Shown: positions 11,558-38,920 of the stretch, piece after piece | Position numbering within the stretch: the first letter of the stretch is position 1 | How the letters are laid out: every line of letters starts with the position of its first letter | From: a virus | Strand: one strand, 5' to 3' | IMG/VR virus record: IMGVR_UViG_3300020165_002937 | DNA length: 64,000 nt | Notes under the pieces: generated by a model | The model's input: only the letters and a program-made list of their open reading frames with translations | Told to the model about the DNA's origin: nothing | The model's database searches: none | Translations under genes and position numbers: made by a program

Positions 11558-11565
11558 ACTATTTA
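11558..11565 (+). promoter_or_regulatory. putative late promoter motif (ACTATTTA)
   Basis: Exact motif, intergenic, just upstream of SD AGGAGAGG and ATG 11583. Confidence 0.65.
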
Positions 11566-16768: not shown

Positions 16769-17710
16769 GTGAACAAGAAAGAAGCGATAAAGATTTTAAA
16801 TGAAGTTATTGGGGACTACCGGCAAACAGGCAAAAGTGAACTTTATTTCAGGTGCCCTGCGTGCAATCACAGAAAGTATAAGCTCGCTGTTAACTTGGAT
16901 AAAAATGCTTTTCATTGTTGGATTTGTGATTATCGCAGTCGCAATATTAGGCGCCTTGTTAGACGTTTTGGTTCGTATTCACAATTACAAAAATGGGACG
17001 GAACTTCAGACCGGGCTGATCTTGAGAGATTTGCTGATCTCTTTATGGAGCCAGTCCGTAGAGAAGACAAGACGAAACTTGAACTCCCGGAAGAATTCAT
17101 AAGCCTGACTAACAAAGATATTCCGGCCACCGGAATATATGCCCATAGATATCTTTCAGGCAGGAGAATTTCCAAAGAAGATATACTTAAATGGAAAATT
17201 GGGTACTGTTTCAGTGGCGAATATAGGAACAGGATCATTATACCGTCTTTTGATGATGACGGAGATTGTAACTACTTTGTAGCCCGCACGTATAACGGTG
17301 ACACATATAAATACAAGAACCCAAAAGCCTCAAAAGATATTATATTTAATGAACTATTTATTGATTGGAACACTGATTTGGTTCTAGTAGAGGGGATATT
17401 TGATGCACTGGTCGCCGGAAATTCCGTTCCTATACTGGGCTCAACCTTGCGCCCGGGCTCCAAATTACTGCGGAAAATCGTACGAAACGATACACCCGTC
17501 TACATCGCACTTGACCCTGACGCCGCAACGAAAGAACGCAGGATTATTCAGATGCTTCTTAAATACGATATTGAGCTTTATAAAATAGATGTTGAAGGCT
17601 ATGAAGATGTCGGAACAATGCCAAGAAATATCTTTCAACAAAGAAAAGAACAAGCTATTTATATCGACAGAGACGACTATATTTTAAGGGATATGATAGA
17701 ATCAATATGA
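16769..17710 (+). CDS. DNA primase (DnaG-like, Zn finger + TOPRIM)
   Basis: CPAC...HCWIC zinc-binding domain; RIIIP, VEGIFDAL and LDPDA TOPRIM motifs; SD GAGG before GTG. Confidence 0.88.
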   Translation: MNKKEAIKILNEVIGDYRQTGKSELYFRCPACNHRKYKLAVNLDKNAFHCWICDYRSRNIRRLVRRFGSYSQLQKWDGTSDRADLERFADLFMEPVRREDKTKLELPEEFISLTNKDIPATGIYAHRYLSGRRISKEDILKWKIGYCFSGEYRNRIIIPSFDDDGDCNYFVARTYNGDTYKYKNPKASKDIIFNELFIDWNTDLVLVEGIFDALVAGNSVPILGSTLRPGSKLLRKIVRNDTPVYIALDPDAATKERRIIQMLLKYDIELYKIDVEGYEDVGTMPRNIFQQRKEQAIYIDRDDYILRDMIESI

Positions 17711-17991
17711 GCCAGAAATACACCATCCAGGGAATAGATTTTGAAGAGTACAACTTACGCCTGTTATACCGGATTATGATGGTCGATCAGCAATTTATTT
17801 CAGATGTATCTGACGTCGATAACCAACCACCAGATTTTAGAAGCACTCTGAGTTATTTAACTGATATTCAATTTTTAAAAAAAACAACGCAAGATGAACA
17901 GCCAAGTACGATAACTTGGTCTGCGACTGACACAATGAAAGATTTTTGGTCTGAGTCACAAAGCGAAATCGAAGTTATATTGGGACTTTAA
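17707..17991 (+). CDS. hypothetical protein
   Basis: 94-aa ORF with ATGA overlap on the primase stop. Confidence 0.55.
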   Translation: MSQKYTIQGIDFEEYNLRLLYRIMMVDQQFISDVSDVDNQPPDFRSTLSYLTDIQFLKKTTQDEQPSTITWSATDTMKDFWSESQSEIEVILGL

Positions 17992-21214: not shown

Positions 21215-21225
21215 GAGAAGCTGCT

Positions 21226-22620
21226 GTGAAAATCAAAAAGTTAGAACTTACGGAGATTATTAAAGAAGAAATCAATAAATTTATCACTGAAGATGATTTT
21301 GATGATTACATGCAGTCGATCACGACAACGTCTAAGGCCGCCCAACGCACCCAAGGCGCCGCAAACAAAGCAACTGCACCTATGAGGGCAACTCGCCAAT
21401 TCCTAATTAACGAATGTGGAAATCAAAAGATACTCCGCGCTATGTTCGGACACGAGAATGAGCGAGATATTGATTTTAATCTTGCTGAAAAAGATTGGCC
21501 AGAATATGGACCTGTATCGGAACAGGCTGAAGATTTTTATTTCGCTGTCAGTAATCTCGTTACCGACTGGGTTGGTGATGACGAGTATGATGGTCGCTAC
21601 AATCCCAATACCACATTTCAATATTTAGCTCCAACGCGCGCAAGGTCGTCTTATGGTTCAATGATTGTGAACTCGGACGGTAACGGCCCACTGCTTGTCA
21701 AATGTAAGCTTACAATAGACAAATACATCGGACTAAACCCGGATTCTGGACTCAAGCCGCTTGAAGAAAGACAGCCAAATTTATATACAGAAGGAATTGC
21801 TAAAATGAAGATTAGAAGGTCACAACTTGAAGATATTATCAAAGAAGAAGTATCAGCCATGGTAGAGGAGTTTGGAGACGACTCACCCTTCCGAATGCGC
21901 GACATGGTGCCACCAAAGGTTCGTGGAAAATTTAAAGATACATTTACCAAGATACCCCACCCCGGACGCGCGCACTTGATGGGTAAAGAAAGAAGACCTA
22001 ACGCTCAAGAAAAAGCTGCATGGAAAGCAGCCGGTGGCTATCTTAGTGTATTCGATAAGCCGGCGATAGCTCAATTTCTTGAAGACGCAGGACTGTATGA
22101 CCCCGAATTCGGGACCAGCTCTCTCGAAAAATATATGGATAATGTAAAATACGCTATCAAGGGTGATCGCTTGGGCCGCCAAATTAACTCTCTCGTCGAT
22201 GCACTGGCGTTGGCTAATAAGACAGGCTCTCGACGCGGCCACTTAAAAACCGCCAAGAAAAAATCCAATAAGCCGCCACAATTTACAAGAGAGTCGATTG
22301 AACGAATCACCAAAGAAGAGCTTTCGAGTGTGCTCCATGAGCGCTCTAAAAGTTTCACATATAAAGTTATCGAAGATGAATTTGATGGCGGACCAAAGGT
22401 AGAAGTCGAGGGAATTGATAAAACTTTTGAGCAAATGATAGAGGAATTAGAAGGCAAAACCTTAGACTTTGGTGACGAACCACCCTTTAAATTTAGTATC
22501 GATTTGTTTGATGGTGAGCCATGGAAGATGATCGTCAACGGCCAGGCACCGGCATATATTGAAATGTGGGCAGAAATGAACGGATTCGAAGCAGAGGAAA
22601 CCGGAAAGGCATATTACTAA
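21226..22620 (+). CDS. hypothetical modular protein with three copies of the IIKEE leader (putative internal head protein)
   Basis: MKIKKLELTEIIKEE at the start, MKIRRSQLEDIIKEE at 21805, FTRESIERITKEE at 22282; SD AGGAG before GTG. Confidence 0.65.
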   Translation: MKIKKLELTEIIKEEINKFITEDDFDDYMQSITTTSKAAQRTQGAANKATAPMRATRQFLINECGNQKILRAMFGHENERDIDFNLAEKDWPEYGPVSEQAEDFYFAVSNLVTDWVGDDEYDGRYNPNTTFQYLAPTRARSSYGSMIVNSDGNGPLLVKCKLTIDKYIGLNPDSGLKPLEERQPNLYTEGIAKMKIRRSQLEDIIKEEVSAMVEEFGDDSPFRMRDMVPPKVRGKFKDTFTKIPHPGRAHLMGKERRPNAQEKAAWKAAGGYLSVFDKPAIAQFLEDAGLYDPEFGTSSLEKYMDNVKYAIKGDRLGRQINSLVDALALANKTGSRRGHLKTAKKKSNKPPQFTRESIERITKEELSSVLHERSKSFTYKVIEDEFDGGPKVEVEGIDKTFEQMIEELEGKTLDFGDEPPFKFSIDLFDGEPWKMIVNGQAPAYIEMWAEMNGFEAEETGKAYY

Positions 22621-22621
22621 A

Positions 22622-23260
22622 ATGAAACTGTTAATAGAAAATTGGAACAAGTTTTTGAACGAGAAACAAAATGCCGCATCGATGGTAGCTTCCGCTTTTC
22701 AGAATACAGATCCGAAATATCTAGAAGACACTCTGTCGACCCGCACAGCCGGCCCCGGCGCCGCTGGTAGCACTTTTTCCGGTCCAACTTCTATCCAAGA
22801 TTTAATACAAGCCGGTTGGCAACCACACCCTCATCCGGCAATAAACACATCTATTGGAGCCATTGGGTTTAAGGCCGCAATTCCCGGTGTGTTAGGAATC
22901 GCTGATATTGACGAAGCACCAGACGAAGTTGTGTTTCAACCAGCACACGGTGGCAAAGCAATGACTAAAGAGCCAAATCCGCAAACTGGTGAACCAGAAG
23001 TTTTGGCAGAGGTTGTTGCAGATATTCCTGCTGCGGCCCGTGAAGTCAGGCACACAACTTTAATCATTGGGCCATCTAGAGAAGATAAAGAAAAACTGCA
23101 AGTTTGGACTTTTCACCCCGGTGATCCAACGCCGCAACTTCCCGAAATAACAATGCGAGAAGTTAAAGAAAGATACAACACTACCGAAGATCGCATTCGT
23201 GGCAGTAAACAAGATGCTGTTGATATGGGATACGGCTTTGTAAAGCACGGTAAAATTTAA
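22622..23260 (+). CDS. hypothetical protein with MKLLIENWNKFLNE leader (putative internal head protein)
   Basis: 212 aa; leader shared with 24411..24848; C-terminal HTTLIIGP...VWTFHPGDP. Confidence 0.65.
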   Translation: MKLLIENWNKFLNEKQNAASMVASAFQNTDPKYLEDTLSTRTAGPGAAGSTFSGPTSIQDLIQAGWQPHPHPAINTSIGAIGFKAAIPGVLGIADIDEAPDEVVFQPAHGGKAMTKEPNPQTGEPEVLAEVVADIPAAAREVRHTTLIIGPSREDKEKLQVWTFHPGDPTPQLPEITMREVKERYNTTEDRIRGSKQDAVDMGYGFVKHGKI

Positions 23261-23271
23261 GGAAACTAACA

Positions 23272-24414
23272 ATGTCAGACGAAAAAGAAGATAAAAACGA
23301 ATTTGATTTTCTGCCTCCCGCAGAACCACCTCCCGCGTTTGCGCAGGAAAAAGACAGTTACCACGAAGAAGTAGATGCAGAAGATTTCGGTATGGTTGAA
23401 GACTTCGGATTACAGATGGAATACTCTGATGAAGATTTACTCCCCGAGAATACAGCACCCTCATCTATCAATGTTGGTTTTGTCGGTGTCGGCGGTGGAG
23501 GCAATAAAATGGCTAATGCTTTTATTGAGCTTGGCTTCAACAAAACATTGCTTGTCAATACAACAGGCAAAGACATTCCAAAGAATGTCGAAGAGGACCA
23601 CGTTGTCCTTATCCCCGATTCTGATGGAATCGGCAAGAACACTGAATATGGAAAAGAGGTTTTAAGTCAAAATGGCGCGATTGTTGAAGATGCCCTGCGT
23701 ATCAAACTCGGTAAAGTTGATTGGTTATTCGTCCTTGCTGGCGGCGGCGGCGGTACCGGTAGTAGTGTTACCGCTCTGCATCCTGTCTTTGAGCGTTACA
23801 TGCGCTCTGTGCAATCGAGTGGCAAGGTCGTTTACATAGTCTCTTGGCCAACAGCACAAGAAAATCTTAACCCCACAATCGCTCGTAATGCGTTGACGCT
23901 GGCAAATGACGTCACCAAGTATCCGCATATCATTTTAGACAATGAACGAGCCACACGATTACTGCGCGGCCGCATTGGCATGCTTGGCATGTACCCAGTC
24001 GCCAACACAACTTTTGCTAAGTCACTTGCCCAAGTGTTAAAGCTCTCCACCGAGGATTCACCGATTCAATCTTTTGACAGCAAGGATTTGGAAACATGTT
24101 TGGGCAATGACGGTCGTGCCTTCTTAGGCTCAACTATGATAAAGGATCCAAATACTGCTAAGCTTGGATCGGTGATTCTCCATAACTGTATGAATAGGTC
24201 AGCGTGCCCCCCACCGAAAGGTAAGGCCGCGGCAGGTTCATTGGTTTTGGTAGTCTCGGAAGAGATGGTGGCTGACCCTAAAGTCAGTAAGAATATTGAG
24301 TCGGCAATCGCTTATGTCGGCGGTCGATGCGAGACACTTTTCTCTGGCGTTTACGTCCGAAAGAATGTGCCTGGATTGATTGCGATACTAAGTATGAATG
24401 GATTAGCGACATGA
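23272..24414 (+). CDS. tubulin/FtsZ-family GTPase (phage PhuZ/TubZ-like)
   Basis: GVGGGGNK, DGIGKN, signature AGGGGGTGS, LDNE and T7-loop-like SFDSKD; ~65-aa acidic N-terminal extension. Confidence 0.9.
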   Translation: MSDEKEDKNEFDFLPPAEPPPAFAQEKDSYHEEVDAEDFGMVEDFGLQMEYSDEDLLPENTAPSSINVGFVGVGGGGNKMANAFIELGFNKTLLVNTTGKDIPKNVEEDHVVLIPDSDGIGKNTEYGKEVLSQNGAIVEDALRIKLGKVDWLFVLAGGGGGTGSSVTALHPVFERYMRSVQSSGKVVYIVSWPTAQENLNPTIARNALTLANDVTKYPHIILDNERATRLLRGRIGMLGMYPVANTTFAKSLAQVLKLSTEDSPIQSFDSKDLETCLGNDGRAFLGSTMIKDPNTAKLGSVILHNCMNRSACPPPKGKAAAGSLVLVVSEEMVADPKVSKNIESAIAYVGGRCETLFSGVYVRKNVPGLIAILSMNGLAT

Positions 24415-24848
24415 AACAACTATTTGAAAATTGGAACAGGTATTTGAAAGAAGATGAGCAGCAATCGCTAGCGATTGACATGTCTCCTGCGCGCTCGCCT
24501 GAAGAAGTAGCGGAATTAAAATTTAATACATTCCTTGAAAAACACGGCGATGAACTTAAGCAAGAATTTGAAGATTCAATCGATGGACCTGAAGCTTCAG
24601 GAACATTCGGCTATATGGAAGAAATTTTCGATGATTATTTTCTTCGATCCGCCGGCGATTATCACAAAGATGAGGCGTATAGAAAACTGATTCAAGTCAT
24701 TGATCATGAAATCAACGACTTTTACAGTTATATGGAAAAAGGACGAACCACTTTTGACAAGGGTTTGAAATTTTTATTTATGAGAGTATTAGAAGCGCAT
24801 GATGAATTGAACTGGGACAAAACAAATAAAATACCAACAGAAAACTAA
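24411..24848 (+). CDS. cassette gene 1: acidic hypothetical protein with MKQLFENWNRYLKE leader
   Basis: ATG overlaps the tubulin TGA (ATGA); the stop TAA lies inside repeat copy 2. The ORF-track start 24327 is judged too early. Confidence 0.7.
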   Translation: MKQLFENWNRYLKEDEQQSLAIDMSPARSPEEVAELKFNTFLEKHGDELKQEFEDSIDGPEASGTFGYMEEIFDDYFLRSAGDYHKDEAYRKLIQVIDHEINDFYSYMEKGRTTFDKGLKFLFMRVLEAHDELNWDKTNKIPTEN

Positions 24849-24877
24849 GTATGAATGGATTAGCAACATAGGAGATT

Positions 24878-25120
24878 ATGATGAAAATTACAAAACAACA
24901 GCTTAAACAAATTATCAAAGAAGAATTAGCCGAGGTAGGTCAATATGGATTAGGGGTGCCGGGAGGTTCCACAAGTTCCGTAGCAGATCCACACACCGCC
25001 GCAATAGAAGCTCTTGCAGATTACATACGCAACAGACTACCGTACAGAGAAGATCAAAAGCTTTTAGAACTTTTACAAACTGCTGAAGAAGCGGTTATTG
25101 ACTTTGAGAACGAACTATAA
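24878..25120 (+). CDS. cassette gene 2: hypothetical protein with MKITKQQLKQIIKEE leader
   Basis: SD AGGAG at 24870; the stop TAA lies inside repeat copy 3. Confidence 0.75.
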   Translation: MMKITKQQLKQIIKEELAEVGQYGLGVPGGSTSSVADPHTAAIEALADYIRNRLPYREDQKLLELLQTAEEAVIDFENEL

Positions 25121-25139
25121 GTATGAATGGATTAGCAAC

Positions 25140-25373
25140 ATGAAGATTACAAAACAACAACTTAAACAGATTATTAAGGAAGAGATAGAAGGACTACCGG
25201 AAGCCGGCAGCTTTACGCGCCGATCTACAATCACCAAAATCATCCGCGACGAAATCATCGGTCTTATGGAGGATCAGGGGTTTTTCGAGATGGGGGCGAT
25301 TCCGCAATCCGTTATTAAAGCTGTTGAAAATACCTCCTTACGTATCGCCGACACAGTGGAAGGAATGGATTAA
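25140..25373 (+). CDS. cassette gene 3: hypothetical protein with MKITKQQLKQIIKEE leader
   Basis: ATG at the end of repeat copy 3; stop inside copy 4. Confidence 0.7.
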   Translation: MKITKQQLKQIIKEEIEGLPEAGSFTRRSTITKIIRDEIIGLMEDQGFFEMGAIPQSVIKAVENTSLRIADTVEGMD

Positions 25374-25377
25374 CAAC

Positions 25378-25791
25378 ATGAAGATTACAAAACAACAACT
25401 TAAGCAGATTATTAAGGAAGAGTTAAAGGATTACACGCGCGGCGAAGCCCGCAGTCCTGAAATTCAGATCCCGGGCTATGGCATTATGACTGTTGAGGGG
25501 GTTAAAAGAAAATTAGCTGTTATGTTACAAGAGGCTGCCGATGATGCAACCAAAGACCCACCAAGCTACTCGCACCTCAATGGCGGCGTCATCCAGGCGC
25601 TCCACCAAGCATTAAGAGATCACTATCAAAATTCCGAAGAATCCCTTGAAGAAAAGATCAAGGAAGTTGAAGGTGGATATAAGGCGACCACTAAGAGCGG
25701 TAGACCATTATCAAAAAAGCCAAAGACAAAGAAAGGCGCTCAAGCCCAACTCGCAGCAGTGGAGATATCAAAAGCCAAGAGAGGTAAGTGA
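25378..25791 (+). CDS. cassette gene 4: MKITKQQLKQIIKEE leader plus basic C-terminal module
   Basis: ATG at the end of repeat copy 4; Lys-rich C-terminus after SLEE. Confidence 0.7.
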   Translation: MKITKQQLKQIIKEELKDYTRGEARSPEIQIPGYGIMTVEGVKRKLAVMLQEAADDATKDPPSYSHLNGGVIQALHQALRDHYQNSEESLEEKIKEVEGGYKATTKSGRPLSKKPKTKKGAQAQLAAVEISKAKRGK

Positions 25792-25991
25792 TGGCAGCTG
25801 CAACAAAAGCTTTCGTGGATACATGGTTGGCAAAACTTACTTCCCGCAAGCTGATGGTGTGGCTTACAGCGACCGGCCTAACCTTTACGGGGCATGTTAC
25901 TAGCGAAGACTGGGTGTTAATCTCCGCTATATATATTGGGGGCCAAACTGTTATTGATGGGTTGGCTCGTTTAAAAGGGTACAATGATTAA
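25791..25991 (+). CDS. putative holin
   Basis: 66 aa with two hydrophobic segments after SRKL; SD GAGG; precedes spanin-like genes. Confidence 0.55.
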   Translation: MAAATKAFVDTWLAKLTSRKLMVWLTATGLTFTGHVTSEDWVLISAIYIGGQTVIDGLARLKGYND

Positions 25992-27166: not shown

Positions 27167-27712
27167 ATGGCTACAGTATATGAAATTATTCAAGGTCTCT
27201 CGCAAGCAGCAGCAAATGCTTATGACGGAGCTTTAAACGAAGAAGGTGAGTCTGTGTTAGCCGGCTTGAACCGGGAGGATGGAAATCCCCTTATTGATCG
27301 CCGGGTAATAGATGGATTTAATGTCAGGTTTTTCGGAAACAAAATGATTCTGGCATATCATTCGGAGACCAAATTAAAAGAAGTCTACAGGGGCGGCTTT
27401 GAAGATAATATTGACAGTACGTTAAACGATGTAGCCTCTTTTTTAAAGAAAGAATATAAAAAGATTACTAAAAATGGTGTCTCACTGAAGCAGGAAGGTG
27501 AGACCGATATTCGTGTGGAAGCCACCAGCCGAGTAAGAACTTGGGTGACAGCCGTTCGCACTTATATCATTGAGGATGTGAGTACCGAAACAACAGTTCC
27601 TCAATATTCCTCTGATTCTTTGCAAGATGGATACAAAAAGTTTCTTGAACTTGGCGACTGGAAGGGTAAGCGCCCCGACAACGATACGCGAACTAAGAAC
27701 GGCGATCAATAA
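27167..27712 (+). CDS. hypothetical protein
   Basis: Likely start MATVYEIIQG at 27167 (AAGGA upstream); in frame with the ORF-track call. Confidence 0.65.
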   Translation: MATVYEIIQGLSQAAANAYDGALNEEGESVLAGLNREDGNPLIDRRVIDGFNVRFFGNKMILAYHSETKLKEVYRGGFEDNIDSTLNDVASFLKKEYKKITKNGVSLKQEGETDIRVEATSRVRTWVTAVRTYIIEDVSTETTVPQYSSDSLQDGYKKFLELGDWKGKRPDNDTRTKNGDQ

Positions 27713-27714
27713 TA

Positions 27715-28263
27715 ATGAAAATTTCTAAGCAAGAATTGAGACGCATTGTCTTAGAAGAGTTTATGTTAGAAGAGGGTATCGAGACAGAGGCCCTTTCTCC
27801 CGAAAAATTTGATCAGATGATGAAGAATATCAAAAGTAATCGTAAAGGTAGTAGGCCAATTCCGCCTCCACCAGAAGTACCCCGACCAAAAGGAAAAGGT
27901 CTCCCCCACGAAGATACAATGCCTATGGATATCCCAGCAGACGATGCCCCAGAAAGTGAATATTCCGGCTTCCAAGATCGCCCGGGCGCACATCTAGAAG
28001 ATCAGATATTCTCCCTAATAAAAGGTATGTCACCGGAGGACGTCCAGGGGTTATTCCAGGATGTGTTTGAAATGTTGCCTGGGATTGAAATGCAGCAACA
28101 AGAGCCCGACGCAAAACCTTCTACGGAATATGGCGGCGAAGAATTTGAACTCCGTCAACGACAAGGTAGAATTGCCGGTATCAGAGAGGTACTTGAACTT
28201 GGTGACCTGATGGCCCTTATTCGCGAAGTGATCAAAGAGGAAGATAACCTTAAAAATGTATGA
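27715..28263 (+). CDS. hypothetical protein with MKISKQELRRIVLEE leader
   Basis: Leader family motif, plus a second copy-like LIREVIKEE near the C-terminus; overlaps the terminase start. Confidence 0.65.
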   Translation: MKISKQELRRIVLEEFMLEEGIETEALSPEKFDQMMKNIKSNRKGSRPIPPPPEVPRPKGKGLPHEDTMPMDIPADDAPESEYSGFQDRPGAHLEDQIFSLIKGMSPEDVQGLFQDVFEMLPGIEMQQQEPDAKPSTEYGGEEFELRQRQGRIAGIREVLELGDLMALIREVIKEEDNLKNV

Positions 28264-33241: not shown

Positions 33242-33568
33242 ATGGACTTAATAACTTTTATATTATGCGCTTACGGGCTCACTCAAATACTAGTATATAG
33301 CGACATGCCGATGCTAAACAGGCTACGACCCTCAAAAGAAGCAGCAGGCGGATATGGCAAGGTTTTTCACTGCCCCATGTGCATGGGTTTTCATGTTGGC
33401 TGGCTTTTGATGTTACTTTCTCCATTTACAGAACTATTTAATTTTGACGTTTCCGTGTTAAATTTCTTCCTTCTTGGGTGGCTGTCGTCGGGAACATCGT
33501 ACGTATTAAACATAATCTTCGGCGACGAAGGAATAAATTTTCAAAAAACAGAGGTAAACAAATTATGA
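33242..33568 (+). CDS. DUF1360-like small membrane protein
   Basis: Start MDLITFILCAYGLT; FHCPMCMGFHVG CxxC motif flanked by TM segments. Confidence 0.6.
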   Translation: MDLITFILCAYGLTQILVYSDMPMLNRLRPSKEAAGGYGKVFHCPMCMGFHVGWLLMLLSPFTELFNFDVSVLNFFLLGWLSSGTSYVLNIIFGDEGINFQKTEVNKL

Positions 33569-33912
33569 TTATAACAAAATCCGAACTTAGAAAAATATTG
33601 AACGAAGAGATCGCTACGGCTTTAAAAGAAGCGCCAGAACCACCGCCCGAAAACAAGGTACCACAAACTGTAACCGTAACGCTCGAAAGAATGCAGGCTA
33701 TGCTTATGACCCAAATACAACAACTTGATGACTATAGCGAATTAGTTCCTTTTCTTGAGGGAGTACTCACCATGATCGAGAACGCAAACGAGAAAGATTT
33801 TACACAGTCTGAAAAAATCAGAACTTATCTTGATTTTGCTAATAGGTTCCGCAATCGTTCTAAGGATGTCCAACGGCAGGGCTCTCAAACCTCTGAGGTG
33901 CCTACAAAATGA
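33565..33912 (+). CDS. hypothetical protein with MIITKSELRKILNEE leader
   Basis: ATGA overlap, SD GAGGT at 33551; leader family motif. Confidence 0.7.
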   Translation: MIITKSELRKILNEEIATALKEAPEPPPENKVPQTVTVTLERMQAMLMTQIQQLDDYSELVPFLEGVLTMIENANEKDFTQSEKIRTYLDFANRFRNRSKDVQRQGSQTSEVPTK

Positions 33913-37345: not shown

Positions 37346-38920
37346 ATGGCTTATAAATTTCAAATCGGTCAAGCAGCACTATCAGGTGCCCTTGAACAAG
37401 CCGGCGAGATCACATTCCTTAACGGAAAAGGTCCGGATGGCACAACAATCACTAGGTTGAAAAACTTGGTTGTCTTGGAAGACGGTAACGTCGACGTCCC
37501 ACGACACAACGGCACTATCGGGCTTATGCTCGGAGGCGACGTAGTTACATCGACTGCAGCCGAGCTTAACCTGCTCGACACCGCGGCCGCTGGTACAGTT
37601 GTCAACAGCAAAGCTGTAATCTACAGCAATGCTGGTATTATTCAAGCTACCGACTTCAAGGGTCCAGATGGATTCGATATCGGTAACGCCACCAATGCAG
37701 ATGCATTGAACTTCGCAGCTGCGGAAATCACTGTCAAAGATGGTGTTGATTTCTCGGTTGCTACAGTCGGTGGCTTCAACTACGGCGGTGCTGCGGTTAC
37801 TTCAACTGCTGCAGAGCTTAACTTGCTCGATACTGCAGTAGCTGGCACAGTTGTCAATAGCAAGGCTGTTATTTACAGCGCTGGCGGTATTGTTCAAGGT
37901 ACTGGCTTCAAGGGTGCTGACGACGCTGAAGTTGGTAACGCAACTAACGCTGACTTGCTGGTGCTTGGTGCGGCTAACGTTACTGTGAAAGCGAACAGTG
38001 ATTTAACTGTCGCTAAAGCTGGTGGCCTTAACCTTGCTGACGGCGCAGTTACTTCAACTGCTGCTGAACTCAACTTGCTCGACGGCTCATCTGCCGCTAC
38101 AGTTGTTAACAGCAAAGGTGTAATCTACGGCGCTGCAGGTCAGGTTAACGGAACATCATTGTCTGCTTCTACTGGTATTACTGGTAGTTCAATTGTAATC
38201 GGTCTCGCTGGTACTACAGGTGCTACAATCACCAACACTGGAGTCCTTTTAGGTACCCAACACTTGGCAGTTGGGCCCACCGCAAAAGTATCCAGCTCGG
38301 CAGGTATCACAGGTAGTTCTCTTCAGATCGCTGCCTTTGGTGTAACAAACACTGGCTACGTCAGTATCCCTAAACTCGCAATTGAGTTAGATGCTGATGG
38401 TGAAAACATTATCGGTATTGGTGATCTTGGTGTTGATGGTGCAGCTAACTTTAACGGTGCTGTTACTCTTGGTAACGCTACTGGTGATGATATCACTGCA
38501 ACCGGCCGCTTTGCTTCGAGTCTTATTCCAAAACAAGATTCGACCAGTGACTTGGGTAGTGATACTCTTCGTTGGAGAAAAATCTACGCTGATGAAATCG
38601 TTGGTGCAGATACGACTTTGGATGTTGGACACTATGGTGCGTCCCCGTACGTAACTACCATTTCTAGTTCAACAGACTTTGCTCTTATCAAGTCTGGCTC
38701 TACAACCGGTCTTGGTGGTGCGGTCTACACACTTCCATCGGCTACTCAAGGTAAAGTTCTTCATGTCAAGCTTTCGGGCTCACAAGCGAACGTTAACCTT
38801 AAAGCTGCTGCAAACGACTGCATTGAGGACGGCGTTGCCGCAGGTTCAATTTTCCTTGAATCAACCGGTTCTGCTGTTACCTTGGTTGCTATGAATAACG
38901 AGCACTGGTACATCATCTAA
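37346..38920 (+). CDS. fibre-like protein with internal repeats (3/5)
   Basis: Three VTSTAAELNLLD...TVVNSK repeats; SD GGAGG; codon usage like the major capsid gene; own terminator. Confidence 0.7.
   Translation: MAYKFQIGQAALSGALEQAGEITFLNGKGPDGTTITRLKNLVVLEDGNVDVPRHNGTIGLMLGGDVVTSTAAELNLLDTAAAGTVVNSKAVIYSNAGIIQATDFKGPDGFDIGNATNADALNFAAAEITVKDGVDFSVATVGGFNYGGAAVTSTAAELNLLDTAVAGTVVNSKAVIYSAGGIVQGTGFKGADDAEVGNATNADLLVLGAANVTVKANSDLTVAKAGGLNLADGAVTSTAAELNLLDGSSAATVVNSKGVIYGAAGQVNGTSLSASTGITGSSIVIGLAGTTGATITNTGVLLGTQHLAVGPTAKVSSSAGITGSSLQIAAFGVTNTGYVSIPKLAIELDADGENIIGIGDLGVDGAANFNGAVTLGNATGDDITATGRFASSLIPKQDSTSDLGSDTLRWRKIYADEIVGADTTLDVGHYGASPYVTTISSSTDFALIKSGSTTGLGGAVYTLPSATQGKVLHVKLSGSQANVNLKAAANDCIEDGVAAGSIFLESTGSAVTLVAMNNEHWYII

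Follow-up and report, generated by a model that had tools for sequence, protein, structure and literature searches.

Why should the end of one gene recur several times downstream of that gene, each time with a different small gene in between? We addressed this question in a 64,000-nucleotide (nt) stretch of viral DNA (IMG/VR record IMGVR_UViG_3300020165_002937; hereafter the window), in which the last nucleotides of a tubulin/FtsZ-family GTPase gene are repeated through an array of small genes that ends at a holin-like gene. An earlier note, made from the letters alone, had proposed that the tubulin end acts as an att-like site in an integron-like system. We instead propose, with a probability of roughly 0.64, that the array arises by integrase-free, two-step shuffling at an accessory-gene locus of a T4-like phage, in which homologous crossover prepends genes that carry a copied tail.

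Copies of the tubulin gene end separate unrelated small genes

The features of the array are listed below, with lengths of proteins in amino acids (aa); L-numbers (L010, L042 and so on) are labels of the loci of relatives.

23272-24414, + strand: tubulin/FtsZ-family GTPase gene, the upstream anchor (Pfam PF00091, E 1.8e-8; best PDB matches FtsZ)
24385-24412, + strand: template tail, the last 28 nt ahead of the tubulin stop, as read in the sequence
24411-24848, + strand: cargo gene 1, 145 aa, class B leader at 24411-24452, ORFan body, stop in copy 1
24844-24869, + strand: tail copy 1, 26 nt, 25/26 identical, followed by an AGGAG linker
24881-25120, + strand: cargo gene 2, 79-80 aa, class A leader
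25116-25141, + strand: tail copy 2 (matching from 25118), source or site of the gene 2 stop and the gene 3 start
25140-25373, + strand: cargo gene 3, 77 aa, class A leader, found at rank 1 in L042 and untailed in L024
25363-25379, + strand: tail copy 3, of which only the 3' 17 nt match (16/17)
25378-25791, + strand: cargo gene 4, 137 aa, class A leader, without a tail
25791-25991, + strand: putative holin-like 66-aa membrane protein gene, the downstream anchor, kept in relatives; no family match

In register with the template, the copies start at 24387, 24844, 25116 and 25354, spaced by 457, 272 and 238 bp. The recurrences reported at 24844, 25118 and 25363 were thus borne out, including their readings in the tubulin frame and their TAG or TGA stops; the single difference in copy 1, G to A, is synonymous in that frame. 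Within 64 kb, a 22-mer of the tail had three matches at up to three mismatches, compared with none in 100 shuffles. The template holds a TAA in frame +1, an internal ATG that opens a six-codon frame (MNGLAT), and a weak Shine-Dalgarno-like GGA.

As the earlier note had stated, successive copies are separated by exactly one gene each, and genes 1-3 all end within the copy that follows them (stops at 24846-24848, 25118-25120 and 25371-25373). Its single shared leader resolved into two: gene 1 carries class B (MKxLFENW..LxE) and genes 2-4 carry class A (MKITK..LKQIIKEE). Translational coupling of each cassette held in part, since start and stop overlap at two junctions while the other stop-to-start gaps measure 29-32, 19 and 4 nt. 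Cargo gene 4 is a mosaic, its two halves being found in different genes of other arrays.

A simple tandem duplication or an assembly artefact is another account of such repeats, and assembly graphs are indeed tangled at repeats and leaders. The cargo bodies are mutually unalignable (best E 0.7), which speaks against duplication, and the copies carry distinct variants. Single Logan contigs from two studies cover the tubulin end up to copy 1 (24383/6-24873) with zero differences, contigs from three runs cover gene 3 into copy 3, and identical arrays recur in independent assemblies, although no single contig spans the whole window array. We regard this explanation as having a negligible chance. 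Forward joints seen in contigs (24415>25140 and 25183>25396) have sides of 25-27 nt and may stem from other strains; they were not used, nor were summed contig depths taken as frequencies.

Tails are inherited with their genes and lie towards the head of the array

The interval from the tubulin stop to the holin-like gene ranged from 34 (empty) to 5177 bp in 80 relatives, across which the tubulin/FtsZ-like gene is 91-99% identical. Dereplication left 69 distinct arrays, in which 270 genes were called; these form about 152 families, including 107 singletons. Gene calling was automated, and a few of the calls are wrong. The locus is thus hypervariable, built of single-gene units, and includes an empty allele (L065), in agreement with the expectation that gene content differs between relatives.

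Downstream tail copies were present in 34 of the 69 arrays and absent from 35. Where they occur, tailed genes stand ahead of untailed ones by 125:16, and the last gene is never tailed. Six families were tailed in all members, against a permutation expectation of 0.84 (0/5000), and their junctions had identical sequences in different genomes; the tail is a heritable property of its gene. Tailed homologues shared their next neighbour in 3 of 25 pairs and untailed homologues in 63 of 133 (largest family excluded), and the neighbours of tailed genes changed across leader classes and to leaderless genes. Cargo gene 2 illustrates this behaviour: it is at rank 1 in L010, L034 and L243, tailed in each, with different genes coming next, and has an untailed homologue in L244. 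The AGGAG linker that follows copy 1 in the window precedes the same gene at rank 1 in L010.

In L079, and similarly in L073, a copy has in its right half the tubulin-end variant typical of genomes that carry the downstream gene at rank 1. These variants assign that half to the downstream gene and indicate that the old tubulin end was displaced along with the former first gene, as predicted. Since tails are inherited, lie proximally and change their downstream neighbours, the reading of the array as cassettes with polarised growth holds.

The short distal copy in the window had been taken as decayed. The same truncated junction (a type common to L003, L042, L047 and L238) follows the same gene at rank 1 in L042 and L047; being equally short at rank 1, the copy was born short rather than eroded by displacement. 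Decay with rank across the arrays was weak (Spearman -0.28, p 0.03; 28:11 pairs). Target-site duplication was rejected: an allele at -7 tracks between a genome's own end and its copy (odds ratio 45), but many of the genomes that carry it fall into a single clade, and no such tracking was seen for private alleles or for the -22 allele.

Copying of the tail extends beyond the window's clade. In divergent clades (L082, L177 and L179; 61-70% tubulin identity) the copies match the tubulin end of their own clade, and the L179 junction is common to L004 and L007, which belong to the clade of the window. A sister clade with a tubulin ending in IEKGK has equally variable leader-gene arrays with no detectable copies in about 20 loci, which shows that leader-coding DNA alone can support shuffling. 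Leader-bearing genes of this clade also lie between the holin-like and spanin-like genes (L088, L105 and L092). In yet another clade (L201-L210) the tubulin-like gene lies immediately ahead of a gene with a prohead-protease-like start; these loci have neither an array nor the fixed rare codons described below, and form a natural control.

One could suppose that the copies are passive scars of one-off illegitimate joins and that all shuffling proceeds through leader-coding DNA, as the copy-free sister clade and the 35 copy-free arrays of the window's own clade would allow. Tailed genes, however, change their downstream neighbour far more than untailed ones, across leader classes and to genes without a leader, the variant in the right half of a copy depends on the gene that comes next, and the polarity is strong. 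We consider passive scars unlikely; the tail provides a further handle, whatever the leader class.

The ends of other core genes are copied as well

Upstream of the tubulin gene lies a second variable array:

21215-23271: interval from sbcC to the tubulin gene, with two leader-bearing genes at 21226-23260, + strand

This interval measures -6 to 2061 bp in relatives, with some alleles empty, and 35-nt copies of the sbcC 3' end were found in L054 (522-1010) and L065 (3072-3515). The end of another core gene (the homologue of the gene at 27167) is copied in L058, and a third leader-gene array, between primase and sbcC (L053:440-1710), contains a tubulin-tailed gene. Tail copying is therefore general across core-gene ends and not specific to tubulin, albeit at unequal frequency: the tubulin tail is copied at 36 of 151 loci and the sbcC tail at 4 of 88 at most.

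Several chimeras preserve the joins themselves, which show microhomologies of 3-7 nt. In L015, a 55-nt tubulin copy is joined to leader C through a 7-nt microhomology, and L080 (5774) holds a triple chimera of leader A start, tubulin tail and sbcC end directly ahead of the tubulin start. Comparison of L029 with L004, and of L003 with L051, placed joins at donor stop codons.

Within the window, the gap between primase and sbcC holds one small unknown gene (17707-17991). The 464-aa product of the gene at 21226-22620 begins with leader A and contains it a second time at residue 194 and, weakly, around residue 351, as if two or three cargo genes had been fused.

Relatives encode RecA/UvsX and no recognisable integrase

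A true attachment site at the tubulin end would imply a nickase or recombinase, of phage or host origin and so far unrecognised, that cuts at -28 (counted from the tubulin stop) and captures single genes at loose secondary sites near their stops, which would give an integron-like, polarised array. Searches for the tyrosine recombinase family PF00589 gave no hit in five relatives, four of them complete, while the positive control was detected in 14/14, and none was seen in the window. Serine recombinases (PF00239 and PF07508) and the Y1 transposase (PF01797) were absent from the four to five complete relatives searched, Cas1 (PF01867) from 5/5. A reverse-transcriptase route was rejected, there being no PF00078 in complete relatives. 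RecA/UvsX, in contrast, is encoded in 5/5. Because no integrase was found, phage homologous recombination is the likely driver; this part of the earlier proposal stood, with RecA/UvsX taking the place of the SbcCD/RuvC that had been suggested.

The repeat itself offers no hairpin of the attC type (DNA folding z -0.06 to +1.0), no terminator, no sigma-70 promoter and no Rfam match. In five genomes it is confined to the array locus, save one match with three mismatches elsewhere. Copies begin anywhere between -19 and -28, most often at -28, unrelated gene ends are copied too, and private variants of a genome's own tubulin end are missing from its own copies in about eight cases. These observations argue against a dedicated attachment site, and the att-like, integron-like system first envisaged was not supported, in view of the absent recombinase and hairpin, the copied ends of other core genes and the microhomology junctions.

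A proposed two-step mechanism of seeding and spreading

In the mechanism we propose, seeding would be a rare step, of which the chimeras above are examples. Through microhomology or template switching, the 3' end of an accessory gene, as a rule at the stop codon, would become joined to the final 20-28 nt of the upstream core gene. The copied core-gene stretch would also hold the start region of whichever gene is first, and new tails would probably often be grafted from existing copies, which would cap their length.

Spreading would follow because the 3' end of a tailed gene is then the sequence found at the array head in every relative. A RecA/UvsX crossover in the tail, often extended by the 45 nt of leader-coding DNA, could place the gene ahead of any array, either when co-infecting genomes cross over unequally or by way of an excised circle; both routes would give the same product. 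Prepending would move the previous first gene further from the head, along with the old tubulin end, and crossover between copies would delete genes.

Leaders mark acidic cargo proteins

A leader of one of three classes was found in 161 of 266 array genes. Leaders are 14-16 aa long and end in I/L-x-E, an ending that the search patterns required; additional I/L-x-E sites are 2.5 times denser just behind the leader. Each complete genome has 5-8 genes with leader A, distributed over several loci. In the window, two such genes outside the array had position-specific scoring matrix (PSSM) scores of 28 and 26 against a null maximum near 0:

27715-28263, + strand: leader-A gene outside the array
33565-33912: another leader-A gene outside the array

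Pfam and PHROG recognised next to nothing in the cargo families (one PGDYG and one protease among 118), Atlas matches were all below 0.9, the leader peptides had no useful match among GenBank phages, and literature searches for the leader string or for such arrays returned nothing relevant. Leader B resembles the propeptide of the major capsid protein by eye, a candidate dropped for want of a PSSM match. T4 internal proteins (IPs) share only a capsid-targeting propeptide of 10-19 residues, which gp21 cuts after L/I-x-E, vary between relatives and include restriction inhibitors (PMC9026906, PMC3012670, PMC12373910, PMC13716836). By analogy, most cargo would probably be internal proteins like those of T4, packaged in the capsid, processed by the protease and addressed by their N-terminal leaders.

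Observations that weigh against the two-step mechanism

Several observations count against our proposal. The first is the length of the tail: 26-28 nt is short for RecA-type exchange, and T4 recombination drops steeply under about 50 bp. Contigs from four runs contained no backward joints of the kind that circles would leave, in material where contigs drop rare forms. The absence of recombinases was established in relatives rather than in the complete genome of the window's own phage. The cargo is acidic (Glu 1.6-fold), as against the basic IPs of T4, and the leaders are putative capsid-targeting signals.

The left edge of the tail is a further difficulty, as it is more abrupt than would be expected from plain microhomology. 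Across 63 junction types, the tubulin match continues through -26 in 28/29, through -27 in 20/28 and through -28 in 17/20, but through -29 in only 2/17. An upstream GA is common to 10 of 15 junctions with the -28 edge, and this edge would fit descent from a founder that capped later grafts. Lastly, over the final 300 codons of the gene, synonymous constraint peaks at the tail. It begins two codons ahead of the copied part and persists in clades that have hardly any copies, so the tail site has some role at the DNA level for which seeding and spreading do not account. The rare codons ATA and CTA (10% and 18% of Ile and Leu codons in the background) are fixed in 96/96 and 95/96 close alleles, and occur in 10/12 and 12/12 in a distant array-bearing clade; they are not fixed in array-less clades.

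These features are what lend an attachment site its support: the edge at -28 is sharp and lies at a similar position in three distant clades, the constraint to the left of the copy is as an att arm would show, the rare codons are fixed only where arrays occur, the tubulin tail is copied far more than that of sbcC, and a short inverted repeat lies at 24385-24395. The inverted repeat is, however, broken in 24 of 96 close alleles (AGC or TCT). Taken with the evidence on recombinases, hairpins and edges above, this makes a true attachment site, in our judgement, improbable. The most far-reaching reading is a composite in which an unrecognised enzyme would nick the fixed, codon-constrained tubulin site, perhaps a late promoter, and stack capsid-addressed cargo in order, so that the array would be a dated record of injected counter-defence proteins; we give it little credence.

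The constraint could alternatively be regulatory. The tail might serve as a cassette with an embedded late promoter (ACTA-nn-TA, gp55 type), as a translational relay, with re-initiation from the upstream stop on the six-codon frame, whose own end overlaps the following start, or as both, with recombination being secondary, as in PeSLs (see below). Such a role would be compatible with our mechanism and would explain the edge. T4-like late promoters are octamers of this kind, and Aeh1 uses CTAAATA (PMC1524935). The octamer ACTA[ACT]TTA is strand-biased in these genomes (34-46 against 1-4 copies per genome) and precedes many structural genes, the tail octamer stays one mismatch off it across Ser, Cys and Gly codons ending in T, and complete relatives have a weak gp55-like sigma match (phrog_234, E 0.0015; L234:1144-1902, - strand). 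In favour of a relay, 33 of 43 junction types place the upstream stop at -4, +1 or +2 nt relative to the internal ATG, similar to ordinary coupled neighbours (75%); this pattern is confounded by the fixed TAA two bases ahead of the ATG. Against a promoter, three orthologous embedded sites keep T at position 6 among the variants listed and the tail never does, the final TA is lost in 18/96 alleles and the AC in about half of the junction types, an array-bearing clade without the octamer still has a copy (L082), and no sigma-70 promoter is present. On balance, a regulatory cassette, whether promoter, relay or both, is possible but less likely than not.

In the window, ACTA[ACT]TTA sites lie at 11558, 35274, 37240, 40188, 41951, 45113, 45900, 48695, 51852, 21094 and 26982. 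They are found upstream of structural genes and embedded in gene ends, and are a candidate late promoter.

Genome context

The window is from a T4-like myovirus, as judged from its predicted large terminase, gp20-type portal, gp21-type protease, gp23-type capsid and tail sheath; the prohead protease matches phrog_207 (PHROG, E 5e-53). The relatives are marine contigs of up to about 195 kb and belong to an uncultured, widespread phage group without a close relative among GenBank phages, where the tubulin/FtsZ-like protein had no match either. This protein of a phage of about 195 kb belongs to a family with at least 896 homologues at E<=1e-10; its long acidic N-terminal extension spans about 60 residues (23272-23450). 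Two spanin-like genes lie 3' of the holin-like gene. In the structural region, four adjacent genes (36491, 37346, 39045 and 40227) have similar MAYN-like N-termini, and internal repeats of 252 bp occur at 37520-38140 (possible fibre or decoration proteins).

Significance and comparison with known systems

If the two-step mechanism is correct, a lytic phage would obtain integron-like, polarised stacking of genes without an integrase, and the 3' end of any core gene might become a recombination handle once grafted onto an accessory gene. The locus would also provide a population-scale case for the old question of whether mosaic boundaries in phages arise from short shared sequences or from illegitimate joins, since both are visible here in sequence. 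The roughly 150 uncharacterised families are candidates for capsid-packaged, injected proteins, and their leaders for new capsid-addressing tags.

Integrons and elements that integrate into gene ends have, like the array, single-gene units, proximal addition, a restored target end and a displaced old end. The array differs from them in lacking a tyrosine recombinase and an attC hairpin, in its variable crossover edges and in direct repeats homologous to the target. Of the features of a site-specific gene-end element, neither a serine or tyrosine integrase (in relatives) nor a single fixed crossover core (-19 to -28) was found; as for a CRISPR-like array, Cas1 was missing from the five relatives, private alleles are not duplicated and the repeat matches nothing in Rfam.

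The T-even IP loci resemble the array in having variable small genes between fixed flanks, which share only an N-terminal signal ending in L/I-x-E (in the array, an ending set by the search patterns), and in the encoded gp21-type protease. The array leaders are longer (14-16 aa) than T-even capsid-targeting sequences, fall into at least three classes and could not be aligned to known ones with the tools used; the array has about 150 families compared with about 10 described for T-even IPs, and its cargo is acidic and putatively packaged. Gene-tail repeats are not reported for T-even IP loci in the consulted passages of these sources (PMC9026906, PMC3012670, PMC12373910, PMC13716836).

In mechanism the array resembles the PeSL cassettes of T4-like phages (RB49/phi1, PST and nt-1), where short repeats lie between ORFans that differ between relatives, again without an integrase; the array phages have a RecA-type system. 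The authors of that work draw the comparison with integrons and show mini-circles and homologous crossover. A PeSL, however, is an intergenic sigma-70 early promoter plus a terminator stem-loop, spread over early hyperplastic regions (PMC2839356, PMC4122927), whereas the array tail is coding sequence from the 3' end of a core gene, has neither stem-loop nor sigma-70 promoter, and sits in a late region at one locus with polarised growth. In mycobacteriophage Island3, a case of boundary-sequence mosaicism, the final 50 bp or so of the inserted gene 68 duplicate the end of the gene upstream, for which general recombination, intra- or intermolecular, was proposed (PMC3029335). That is a single event, compared with one iterated over a population, at several core-gene ends and in dozens of junction types. 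By the features tested, the array is therefore not an integron, a PeSL or a CRISPR array; it works like PeSL shuffling and the Island3 insertion, at a locus like that of the T-even IPs. What is new is that the handle consists of coding sequence taken from a core gene, that it recurs throughout a population and at several core genes, and that it gives the array its polarity.

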